Source of the DNA: Escherichia phage JLK-2012
Length of the DNA stretch: 57,198 nt
Strand: one strand, 5' to 3'
Sequence record: NC_049942.1
This document shows, piece after piece, positions 10,826-12,993 of this stretch. Position numbers and translations under genes: made by a program. Positions within the stretch are counted from its first letter, which is position 1, and every line of letters begins with the position of its first letter. Under the pieces are notes generated by a model. It was not told where the DNA came from. It ran no database searches and saw only the letters and a list, made by a program, of their open reading frames with translations.

Positions 10826-10855
10826 AGGCAAAGAAAACCCGGCGCTGAGGCCGGG
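10826..10855 (-). terminator. Rho-independent terminator ending the immunity-region leftward operon
   Basis: Minus-strand hairpin CCCGGCCTCAGCGCCGGG followed by TTTTCTT, directly after the stop of the 54-aa ORF. Confidence 0.7.
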
Positions 10856-11020
10856 CTAGATTTTAAAGTATTTATCTTTTAGAGATGTAGATGTAAAACT
10901 TTTCGCCTTTGAAAATTTTTTGTCATCAGAAGGGCTTATGAACTCATCTTTTTTGTAGGGAACCGCTAATGCTGCATCACGTCTGCGAGGCAGCTTGCTT
11001 ACTTCCTCGCGCTTTTTCAT
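10856..11020 (-). CDS. Small lysine-rich hypothetical protein (54 aa)
   Basis: ATG 3 bp downstream of the kinase stop; MKKREEVSKLPRRRDAALAVPYKKDEF...; ends at the terminator. Not in the supplied track. Confidence 0.35.
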   Translation of the reverse strand: MKKREEVSKLPRRRDAALAVPYKKDEFISPSDDKKFSKAKSFTSTSLKDKYFKI

Positions 11021-11022
11021 GA

Positions 11023-12069
11023 TCAGTTATCCTTTAATAACCTATACAGTTTTGTAGGGGTACATCCTGAGGATATTGTTAAGTTCGTAGCACGCCTTTT
11101 CCGCCCATCATCGTATAAACGAAAACCAGTAGTAGACGAATTTTCTGCGTCAAAAACTATAGACAGTATAGCGTCCCCAGACTTTTTTTGCCATTCGCAT
11201 GTGCCGTTAGTTGGTTTCGTCATCTGTAGACGCCAGTCAAGAACGCCATCACTTATAGCTGAGAGATCGTTTAGTACATCTAGTACGGATTGATATCTTT
11301 CATTTGGATCTACATGAATGCATTTGTTCACTATTGTTATTAATTTTTTATGTATATGGGGAGGATACTCTTTTAATGGATAGCAGCCATTAATTATCGA
11401 CTCTCTGAGTTGTTCAATCGTGCTAAATGCAGATCTTTCTCTTTCAAAATTATCATGTCCAACACACATTCTATATATGGTTAATCCTGCCTGATATATG
11501 TCATATGTGAAATTATAATCATTTGTTGATAAAGAAAAATATTCCGGTGGCACATGAAAATGATATCCAAACTCAGGCGCAGCTCTCGATTCCTCATTGA
11601 CTAACTGAGATAATCCAAAGTCAGATAGCATGGCCTCATTTCTGTTTGATATCATAATGTTATTAGGTTTTATATCAAAATGCATAAGACCTTTTGAGTG
11701 TATATGATAAAGTCCACTTAAAAATTGAATGGAATACCGTATTATCTCCCTGCTTGTAAGATTATTTTTTTTCATTAATTGGTTTAGCGAACCATTATGA
11801 TAAAATGGCATGGCTATATAGATATTGCTCTCACATTGAGCAGCATACTGAACTTGCACAATATTTGGATGTGCATGTTTATAGAGAAGCCTTGCTTCAT
11901 TAAAGTAGTCGTCGTGGTTAGTGTTTTCTTTTTTTTCTATTTCTTTAATCACCAAGTCATGAGCTAGGTGTCTGTCATGAGCCAGATATACTTTTGAAAA
12001 ACAACCCTGTTCTTCTAGATCACTAATCCATTCGAATTCTACATCAGCTCTTTTGTATGGAGTTAGCAT
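11023..12069 (-). CDS. stk: Eukaryotic-like Ser/Thr protein kinase (Stk-like, as in Stx phage 933W)
   Basis: 348 aa with kinase subdomain motifs: catalytic-loop HFDIKPNN, DFG (SDFGLS), and a ~100-aa C-terminal extension; AT-rich; overlaps upstream gene by 7 bp (ATGCTAA). Confidence 0.85.
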   Translation of the reverse strand: MLTPYKRADVEFEWISDLEEQGCFSKVYLAHDRHLAHDLVIKEIEKKENTNHDDYFNEARLLYKHAHPNIVQVQYAAQCESNIYIAMPFYHNGSLNQLMKKNNLTSREIIRYSIQFLSGLYHIHSKGLMHFDIKPNNIMISNRNEAMLSDFGLSQLVNEESRAAPEFGYHFHVPPEYFSLSTNDYNFTYDIYQAGLTIYRMCVGHDNFERERSAFSTIEQLRESIINGCYPLKEYPPHIHKKLITIVNKCIHVDPNERYQSVLDVLNDLSAISDGVLDWRLQMTKPTNGTCEWQKKSGDAILSIVFDAENSSTTGFRLYDDGRKRRATNLTISSGCTPTKLYRLLKDN

Positions 12070-12524
12070 CCCCTTACCTCCGCAGATAGTGCAGCCAAAA
12101 CAGCTTCATTTGTTTCAGTTGTAAAACCAGAATTATCGATTCCATTTATATTGCGGTGTGACTTCAATATTTCTTTATACTCGATCTCTGTTAGGTTCAA
12201 TGATGATTTCATGCCAGATTTTCTAATAGTGTAATATTTTCTTACATCACTGCTTGAAAATGCTTCTTGAATAACAGCTTCTATATAAAGGCGGTCAATG
12301 CTAAGATTATCAGAGTTTGATTCAGTAACGCGTATGGCAGCTAATTCAACATTATATAAATTAAGAATGTCGAGGATGTTATTTCTCACATACTTTAATT
12401 TTTCTGGTGTGTCTAAGGTCGAAGGTATTTTAATAACATCAACACATTTGAGTGCAGACTCATTAGTGCAATATACAACAAAAGATGTAACTTTGGGCGC
12501 CGCTCTAACACCTAGTATTCTCAT
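12063..12524 (-). CDS. Hypothetical protein co-transcribed with the kinase (possibly DUF3010-like)
   Basis: 153-aa ORF, stop overlaps kinase start (translational coupling); N-terminus MRILGVRAAPKVTSFVVYC...; family assignment is a weak recollection. Confidence 0.6.
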   Translation of the reverse strand: MRILGVRAAPKVTSFVVYCTNESALKCVDVIKIPSTLDTPEKLKYVRNNILDILNLYNVELAAIRVTESNSDNLSIDRLYIEAVIQEAFSSSDVRKYYTIRKSGMKSSLNLTEIEYKEILKSHRNINGIDNSGFTTETNEAVLAALSAEVRGC

Positions 12525-12591
12525 TTTTTATATCCTATTTTAGAATCAGGCCGCATCTCTGCGACCATCCATCATCCAAACGTCTCTTCAC

Positions 12592-12933
12592 TCATCCGAA
12601 GAAGCAGCAATCCGGGTCAGCACGCACAAGCTCAAGCGCATCAGTCAGCGAAAGTTCAGTACTGTACTGATGCCATTTCATATCCTTCCGCATCCAATAG
12701 ATTTTCCATCTATCCAGAGAACGTATGTACTTGATTCTTGCTGATGGCAGGATGTTTGTTTCACCTGGATTGCCCTGCCACACGGGGCGCTGTTCGCCGA
12801 TATCTATCGTTTGGTCATTGATGCTATAAACAATATCCAGTTCATTGCGGATATGTTCAGGCGGCCTTATGCTTTCAATGAATTGGTGAACTTCTTTTTT
12901 TACTGCTTGATATTCAAGGTCATTGAACGCCAT
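12592..12933 (-). CDS. Hypothetical protein between cI and the kinase operon
   Basis: 113-aa ORF with AAGGAGG Shine-Dalgarno; flanked by a 15-bp direct repeat (12576-12590 and 12947-12961). Confidence 0.6.
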   Translation of the reverse strand: MAFNDLEYQAVKKEVHQFIESIRPPEHIRNELDIVYSINDQTIDIGEQRPVWQGNPGETNILPSARIKYIRSLDRWKIYWMRKDMKWHQYSTELSLTDALELVRADPDCCFFG

Positions 12934-12993
12934 CTATCCTCCTTACCCAAACGTCTCTTCAGGCCACTGGTTACCAGCTATGTGACGATGAAG

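Follow-up and report, generated by a model that had tools for sequence, protein, structure and literature searches.

The accessory operon on the minus strand of Escherichia phage JLK-2012 (NC_049942.1), at positions 10,826–12,993 of the 57,198-nt stretch that was analysed as a whole (the window), raises the question of how many of its genes act together with the protein kinase that it encodes, and in which roles. The operon is placed behind the cI repressor gene and contains orf113, orf153, the kinase gene stk and orf54. The best explanation, which we consider rather probable, is that two independent cassettes lie behind cI: a gene of the DUF3024 family (orf113), and a three-gene abortive-infection system formed by orf153, stk and orf54, whose products are called here components A, B and C. 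The locus, the kinase, the exclusion phenotype and the expression in lysogens have already been published, and no newly found defence locus is described here; it is the three-component architecture around Stk that is apparently undescribed.

Identity of the kinase locus

Positions 10600–13750 of the window (3151 nt) are at least 99.9% identical to phage 933W (NC_000924) and to about 40 other Stx1 and Stx2 (Shiga toxin) phages, including phi24B. The kinase locus is therefore the Stk locus itself and not a mere lookalike. A first-pass annotation, made from the DNA letters alone, had named a kinase known at this position from 933W; the kinase found here is Stk itself, with a protein 100% identical to the Stk of 933W (cluster P0076). 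Judged by its sequence, the region is the immunity region, or accessory operon, of a 933W-type Stx prophage, placed behind cI. The annotation of 933W across the region comprises pM/pRM, oR1–3, cI, a DUF3024 protein, a 'RuvC-like Holliday junction resolvase', stk, a hypothetical protein and tM. The four minus-strand open reading frames (ORFs) and cI were found exactly where the first-pass annotation had placed them. The gene orf113 differs by 1 nt and one amino acid from 933W of EDL933 and is identical to that of Stx2 phage 86 and of some other Stx phages; the single-nucleotide difference indicates that the window represents a 933W-type phage and probably not the 933W reference itself.

An obligate three-gene cassette

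The genes orf153 (12063–12524, minus strand) and stk (11023–12069, minus strand) overlap by 7 nt, ATGCTAA, as had been read from the sequence before, and orf54 (10856–11020, minus strand) starts 2 nt past the stk stop. Their linkage was counted in two scans of IMG/VR, in which only loci with sequence on the relevant side were included. Starting from orf153, all the loci with downstream sequence (84/84) carry the kinase, at a gap of −8 to +12 nt; these loci span 43 distinct A/B combinations, with 32–100% identity. Starting from the kinase, 73/73 loci with upstream sequence carry an orf153 homologue that ends at the kinase start, and the only kinase matches without such a homologue are remote partial ones in giant viruses. 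The identities of A and of B to the window proteins are correlated (r = 0.95), which represents co-divergence. Separate look-ups of divergent orf153 homologues and of divergent kinases, with homology verified at E 1e-16 to 1e-78, returned the same pair each time, whichever of the two genes was the start.

A tblastn search revealed the same gene order in Bacillus phage SPbetaL6, where an orf153 homologue of 167 amino acids overlaps a 350-amino-acid kinase by 4 nt and is followed, past the kinase, by an ORF of 60 amino acids. The SPbetaL6 kinase is 39.5% identical to Stk over residues 1–329, the C-terminal domain included. In SPbetaL6 (positions 4504–6262 of locus L003) and SPbetaL7, both isolated on B. 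subtilis BEST7003, the trio adjoins a tyrosine-recombinase-like gene.

The cassette is located in prophage immunity slots or else beside known defence genes. In Klebsiella Rac-like prophages and in Proteus prophages the orf153-kinase pair is placed directly behind a repressor, a different one in each case. It adjoins Wadjet JetC/JetD on a metagenomic contig; it shares a Pseudomonas island with Abi_2 and an integrase; it lies beside a LlaJI restriction system and ArdA in an Elizabethkingia element, and beside a type I restriction-modification system in a Vibrio island. An Acinetobacter prophage carries it amid tail genes. Among complete E. coli genomes the cassette is present in 225 of 5426 (about 4%), mainly in Shiga-toxin prophages.

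It is practically certain, then, that orf153, stk and orf54 are an obligate A-B-C unit, passed on and translated together in all the lineages covered. The earlier claim of one four-gene unit is not supported: the obligate cassette is orf153-stk-orf54, and orf113, the DUF3024 gene, is shuffled independently. The GC content divides the genes in the same way. The cassette had been called visibly AT-rich over all four genes, which is correct for orf153 (0.348), stk (0.354) and orf54 (0.376) but not for orf113 (0.447), which is similar to cI (0.452); the window as a whole has 0.507.

The search for earlier descriptions covered PADLOC 2023, NCBIfam 2026, Pfam, the PHROGs labels and the literature. 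No description of Stk as a member of a three-gene system, with orf153 and orf54 as partners, was found in the literature or the defence databases, a coverage outside which the primary Stk papers lie. PADLOC 2023 and NCBIfam 2026 contain no family-level model for orf153 or orf54, and NCBIfam 2026 has none for any of the four proteins. The partner genes had been called uncharacterised; this is roughly right for their function, but their expression and the 'RuvC-like' label of orf153 were already on record.

The kinase Stk

The gene stk encodes a 348-amino-acid eukaryotic-like protein kinase, with a match to Pfam Pkinase (PF00069) at E 2e-46 (158.8 bits against a cut-off of 31.7). The first-pass annotation had recognised a catalytic loop and a DFG motif, and the whole set of catalytic motifs is in fact present: K42, E58, H130-x-D132-x-K134-P135-x-N137 and D150-F-G152. 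The catalytic Lys (K42), the alpha-C Glu (E58), H130, D132, K134, N137, D150-F-G152 and the APE-like P175-E176 are invariant in 32 Stk homologues. By its HFD catalytic loop, Stk is a non-RD kinase. Its C-terminal domain, of about 85 amino acids, is family-specific, and the predicted structure of this domain gave no informative fold match. The PD-T4-6 profiles of PADLOC match Stk at E 1e-37, over the kinase domain only (residues ~20–275); the MADS mad6 profile of PADLOC and the kinase models of NCBIfam also match only the kinase domain, none of them at family level.

Three papers that cite the primary work (PMC3564112, PMC3681748, PMC8008677) describe Stk as a eukaryotic-like tyrosine kinase co-transcribed with cI. 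According to them, Stk has little or no activity in uninfected cells, and infection by phage HK97 activates it and is aborted. Once activated by HK97, Stk phosphorylates many proteins, according to the literature. A 933W lysogen also excludes lambda, by about 10^6-fold and in dependence on the lambda immunity region (PMC6989128), a source that states no role for Stk.

Disrupted kinase genes occur among natural copies of the cassette, namely L035/L129, L038, L041, L125, L126, L083/L168 and that of E. coli UTAK-2 (H177). In some of them the match starts at residue 46, 97 or 100, and some loci are 1 nt shorter, in a frameshift-like manner; one genome has an IS3 insertion in the kinase. These alleles suggest that carriage of the kinase is costly or that its loss is sometimes selected.

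The RuvC-fold protein encoded by orf153

A fold search with the predicted structure of the orf153 protein returned a full-length RuvC fold, a relation visible at the fold level only. Against Pfam RuvC (PF02075) the protein reaches 14.2 bits, below the cut-off of 22.2, over the N-terminal 65 residues only, and searches of the PDB by sequence and by profile found no RuvC, only chance matches. The secondary-structure elements of the orf153 model lie at the same residue numbers as those of RuvC. In the Pfam and hhalign alignments, both of them weak, 'ILGVRAAP' of orf153 is placed on 'ILGIDPGS' of RuvC, so that R7 stands at the catalytic D7.

The orf153 family has 440 representatives (E ≤ 1e-3) in 1.84 billion sequence clusters. 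The best 150 of them are all standalone proteins of about 150–175 amino acids. Conservation was counted in 127 of the 150 best-scoring representatives listed. G5, R47 and a basic residue (R/K65) at or next to the E66 position are present in 127/127; R7, at the D7 position, in 126/127, as are R78, E82 and E87 each; E68 in 125/127; and E/D140, which corresponds approximately to D141, in 124/127. The equivalent of D138 is variable. The catalytic tetrad of RuvC (D7, E66, D138 and D141 in E. coli) is accordingly not retained, and only E140 and the nearby E68 are kept.

The first catalytic Asp binds metal in every RuvC/RNase H-like nuclease. Since R7 replaces D7, a basic residue stands at or near E66 and the D138 equivalent is variable, orf153 would be unable to use the canonical two-metal mechanism. 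We therefore regard component A as likely to be a RuvC-fold protein that is not a canonical nuclease, a predicted pseudonuclease in which Arg replaces the first catalytic Asp. The RuvC-fold pseudonucleases TEFM, Tex/Spt6 and Cas12k are included among its lower fold matches.

The small third gene

In nearly all lineages, the kinase is followed by a basic ORF of 50–66 amino acids, which begins −7 to +37 nt from the kinase stop; in Pseudomonas this third ORF overlaps the kinase end. The encoded proteins are all basic, with a net charge of +3 to +9 (orf54, PHROG 4063, has +8). Their alignment presents a common N-terminal Arg motif, PRRRDAALAVPY in 933W and SRRDVAVASPY, LSRSALARP or LTRAENTAP in others, and a C-terminal aromatic-hydrophobic motif, which is YFKI in orf54 and HFDM or YFVA elsewhere. 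Between the window and locus L059, orf54 has 0.20 nonsynonymous (dN) against 1.0 synonymous (dS) substitutions per site, which argues for purifying selection. Its BLAST similarity is significant within the Enterobacterales only (E 5e-8 to Proteus). We count orf54 as a genuine third component, though less securely in distant phyla.

The DUF3024 gene

The product of orf113 (12592–12933, minus strand) reaches 108.9 bits (E 2e-31; cut-off 24.9) with Pfam PF11225 over residues 4–113 and matches, over its full length (residues 1–113), the PADLOC profile of the single-gene candidate PDC-S43 at E 5e-42. DUF3024 is present in 142 phage records and each trio gene in 37–39; about 100 phage records carry DUF3024 without the trio. 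In other prophages DUF3024 is again placed directly behind the repressor and is followed by unrelated cargo: a 177-amino-acid protein in SH2026Stx1; a ParA-like ATPase in Salmonella SE1Spa; a P63C protein in Yersinia; MqsR/MqsA-like genes in Kluyvera; and a second DUF3024 with DUF333 in Rouxiella. Conversely, loci L052–57 carry the trio, 99/97/93% identical, behind a different repressor of 251 amino acids and without DUF3024. The linker CCTGAxGAGACxTTTGGGTGA is found in a single copy at this 'empty' junction in L052, and other phages have it on either side of DUF3024. It is quite likely that DUF3024 is a cassette separate from the kinase trio.

Three divergent lineages have DUF3024 immediately upstream of the trio: the 933W type; L060–64/68, in which DUF3024 is 38–41%, orf153 70% and the kinase 57% identical; and Erwinia L092, in which DUF3024 is 60% identical. 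We attribute this co-occurrence to the preference of both cassettes for the slot directly downstream of the repressor.

A single-sequence match of orf113 to the kinase inhibitor AvrPto in the PDB (E 0.07) vanished when the family profile was used and was set aside as chance. In Stx2 phage II (L014) and about 50 Stx2 phage records, DUF3024 matches in two pieces (residues 12–112, 83% identity), which are unannotated or annotated otherwise and probably represent a frameshifted pseudogene. In the Rouxiella badensis prophage (L093, 2852–4148), the repressor is directly followed by two DUF3024 genes in tandem, in alternation with DUF333 lipoprotein genes or pieces of such genes; DUF333 also precedes DUF3024 in the Erwinia locus, and a recurrent DUF3024-DUF333 association is possible.

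Expression in lysogens

The region of phi24B is identical to that of the window, and two of its genes, vb_24B_13c (orf113) and res (orf153), had earlier been detected in lysogens (PMC4651098). In RNA sequencing of phi24B, cI, stk, vb_24B_13c and res were unchanged on induction, and 68 of the 93 phage genes rose more than 20-fold (PMC4651098). The transcript analysis in lysogens that had been suggested as a check of the locus is thus already published for phi24B, with a positive result (PMC4651098). The proposal of a lysogen-expressed defence or abortive-infection locus agrees with these data and with the published abortive infection of HK97 by Stk.

Proposed mechanism and the HK97 trigger

In the mechanism that we propose, the pRM operon would be read in the lysogen, with orf113 as one cassette and A-B-C as the other. 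Component A would be the sensing or regulatory subunit, which would recognise a phage recombination protein or its branched DNA and then license the kinase; component B, Stk, would be the effector; and component C would restrain or direct B, for instance with its conserved Arg-x-x-hydrophobic motif acting like a pseudosubstrate that inhibits the kinase. We infer these roles from the features described above, and they are offered with different weight: that of A as sensor is tentative, and that of C as inhibitor is speculative and rather unlikely in this precise form.

The gene 41 product of HK97 (gp41) is reportedly required for Stk activation. The gene order in the HK97 record is Gp37, a DUF2737 family protein, abc2, Gp40, erf, a small 'recombinase' gene, kil (Gp43) and cIII (Gp44); from this order and numbering, gp41 would be the Erf-family single-strand annealing protein HK97p31, which matches Pfam ERF at E 2e-44. 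It is plausible that a junction-resolvase fold without the catalytic Asp serves as a detector of the annealing protein or of its DNA products. Phage 933W itself has, by annotation, a RecT-like Bet. No Erf was found in the window or in any trio locus, a weak test of Erf avoidance since the flanks are short and there is no valid Bet control. In its broadest form, a widespread three-component anti-phage system, in which a dead RuvC-fold protein senses an Erf-type recombinase or branched DNA and a basic protein checks a Stk-type kinase effector, is possible but doubtful.

The window and HK97 also have similarities in the early-left region. The N gene is an ORF of 384 nt in both, at 9984–10367 in the window and at 5035–5418 in HK97 (L023). 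The downstream gene, Gp45 in HK97 (4506–4976), has 471 nt, and its window counterpart at 9473–9925 is reported as having the same length; the phi24B annotation names HK97 among the carriers of the 471-nt gene. From the equal gene lengths and positions, the excluded HK97 and the excluding prophage appear to share part of this region.

Several points weigh against the reading of the operon as DUF3024 plus a three-component system with these roles. No A-B fusion proteins occur in the best 150 of the 440 orf153-family representatives, so a physical complex has no Rosetta-stone support. The mapping of the active site comes from weak alignments (hhalign probability of 1.4%; sub-threshold Pfam) and from secondary-structure matching, with no superposition, and the conserved E68, E82, E87 and E140 could together make up an active site of a non-canonical kind. 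The likeness of C across phyla is positional and at the level of motifs, with no significant BLAST similarity beyond the Enterobacterales. That gp41 is the trigger is a reported requirement, and its equation with Erf comes from the gene numbering of an annotation. Stk alone might suffice for exclusion when expressed from a plasmid, and the co-occurrence of DUF3024 and the trio in three lineages makes a facultative functional link possible.

Alternative explanations

One alternative is a defence by Stk alone, as in the single-gene system PD-T4-6, with orf153 and orf54 as dispensable or expression-tuning neighbours. The published work concerns Stk only, and PADLOC files the kinase under PD-T4-6 without a model for either partner; but those profiles cover the kinase domain and not the family-specific C-terminal domain, and orf153 and the kinase occur together in every one of more than 150 loci of several phyla, from whichever of the two the scan started, with overlapping or abutting frames and co-diverging proteins. 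Such conservation is not expected for dispensable neighbours, and we consider this explanation unlikely. A larger unit, in which the DUF3024 protein, the RuvC-like protein, the kinase and the small ORF are one defence system, would agree with the single pRM transcript between cI and tM, with its expression in lysogens and with the three lineages in which DUF3024 directly precedes the trio. DUF3024 is, however, absent from the trio loci of Klebsiella, Proteus (L008–10), Pseudomonas, Acinetobacter, Vibrio, Elizabethkingia and SPbeta and from most trio lineages in IMG/VR; each cassette occurs without the other, in L052–57 and in the DUF3024-only phage records; and orf113 is flanked by direct repeats and has a GC content distinct from the 0.35 of the trio. 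A four-gene system is, in view of this, quite unlikely.

The remaining two explanations accept the trio and assign other roles to it. If orf153 were an active nuclease and the real effector, or a phage recombination resolvase, with the kinase as its regulator, its full-length RuvC fold, its conserved acidic residues and its annotation as 'RuvC-like Holliday junction resolvase' or 'RuvC family protein' would be accounted for. This is very unlikely given the Arg that stands for the first catalytic Asp in nearly all the family members counted, the invariant basic residue at or adjoining the second carboxylate position, the sub-threshold Pfam score and the pseudonuclease precedents among the fold matches. 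Moreover, orf153 was never found without the kinase, and it is expressed with cI in the lysogen and not lytically induced, unlike a phage recombination resolvase. Finally, the trio might be a toxin-antitoxin or addiction module, or a lysogeny controller, with the kinase as toxin and the small or the RuvC-like protein as antitoxin, serving mainly the maintenance of the prophage or island. Its compact layout, with coupled translation and a third gene of very small size, its presence on many kinds of mobile element and the disrupted kinase alleles, as expected with a costly toxin, are consistent with this, and a kinase-kinase-phosphatase module of Pf phages controls both lysogeny and defence (PMC11341870). 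The activation specific to superinfection and the exclusion of HK97, both from published work, and the defence genes that neighbour the trio outside prophages argue the other way, and maintenance as the main role is highly improbable. The two roles are nevertheless compatible, because many abortive-infection systems are built like toxin-antitoxin modules.

Comparison with known systems

The Stk of 933W (Tyler and Friedman 2004; Friedman et al. 2011) is the same gene and protein, in the same position and operon. It is a single actor in the literature consulted, whereas in the present analysis its gene stands between two others in an obligate three-gene cassette that occurs across phyla. The slot had been equated with that of rexAB in lambda, between cI and the N leader, and it is indeed bounded by pRM and tM. 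The cassette shares with RexAB the slot (from cI to the terminator that precedes the N leader), the expression from pRM and the exclusion by aborted infection, the position being established by sequence and the lysogen expression and exclusion being taken from the literature. The analogy is functional only: there is no homology to RexA or RexB in sequence or fold, and Rex is a two-component system of the ion-channel type, whereas the Stk cassette is kinase-based. PD-T4-6 and staphylococcal Stk2 are also kinase-based abortive-infection systems, but PD-T4-6 is without the Stk C-terminal domain and the two partner genes.

From the RuvC resolvase, orf153 differs by an identity of 15%, by an invariant Arg at D7, by a basic or shifted E66 position and by the non-conserved D138 equivalent. 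TEFM, the YqgF-like domain of Tex/Spt6 and Cas12k occur in unrelated contexts, and none of them is paired with a protein kinase. PDC-S43, which orf113 matches end to end, is a candidate system only, and DUF3024 has no obligate kinase partner.

For fifteen years Stk has been cited as a textbook single-protein prophage kinase, one that aborts infection, and annotation tools class it with an unspecific single-gene kinase defence. If a RuvC-fold pseudonuclease and a small basic protein always accompany the kinase, sensing and restraint probably reside in these partners, and kinase-only experiments and annotation models would then miss the system. If, further, component A is the infection sensor, the fold of a Holliday-junction resolvase would have taken on a new use as an immune receptor coupled to eukaryotic-like phosphorylation signalling, from Bacillus to the Bacteroidota. 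In addition, orf153 would represent a further nuclease fold turned into a non-catalytic module, and Stk a non-RD kinase in bacterial immunity. The presence of the trio in E. coli Stx prophages and in SPbeta-like Bacillus phages offers two tractable models, one of them Gram-positive.

Other features of the operon

Coordinates of the 933W record are converted to those of the window by an offset of +919 (window 10600 = record 9681). The maintenance promoter pRM (pM), which drives cI and the downstream accessory genes, lies at 13709–13736 on the minus strand, by annotation transfer from record positions 12790–12817. The cI repressor (12994–13701, minus strand) has 235 amino acids, with the Pfam domains HTH_3 and Peptidase_S24, and is annotated as cI in 933W. 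The cassette had been said to end at an intrinsic terminator, and one was found at 10857–10836 on the minus strand; it closes the pRM transcript and is annotated as tM in 933W and tRM in phi24B. Its stem of 8 bp, with 6 GC pairs, is followed by the T-run TTTTCTTTG, and it overlaps the orf54 stop codon.

The linker is present in the window as a perfect 15-bp direct repeat, CCAAACGTCTCTTCA, with a spacing of 371: copy 1 lies between cI and orf113 (12947–12961) and copy 2 between orf113 and orf153 (12576–12590). Of about 20 nt in all, and containing or preceding the ribosome-binding site, the linker marks junctions between the repressor gene and each accessory cassette behind it. It does so in several lambdoid and P22-like prophages that are unrelated to each other, with further instances in L052 (3900–4010), L012 and L013. 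It looks like a recombination joint for the swapping of cassettes in the pRM operon.

Between the second linker copy and the ribosome-binding site of orf153, directly upstream of the latter, lies an RNA hairpin, GGUCGCA-GAGA-UGCGGCC (12549–12566, minus strand), with a 7-bp stem, a GAGA loop and a fold z-score of −3.0. A role as terminator was rejected, since no U-run follows the stem. L052 keeps the stem via changes on both sides (GGTCGC/GCGGCC vs GGCTGC/GCAGCC), and the hairpin may act in RNA processing or stability and thereby adjust how strongly the kinase cassette is expressed in relation to cI.

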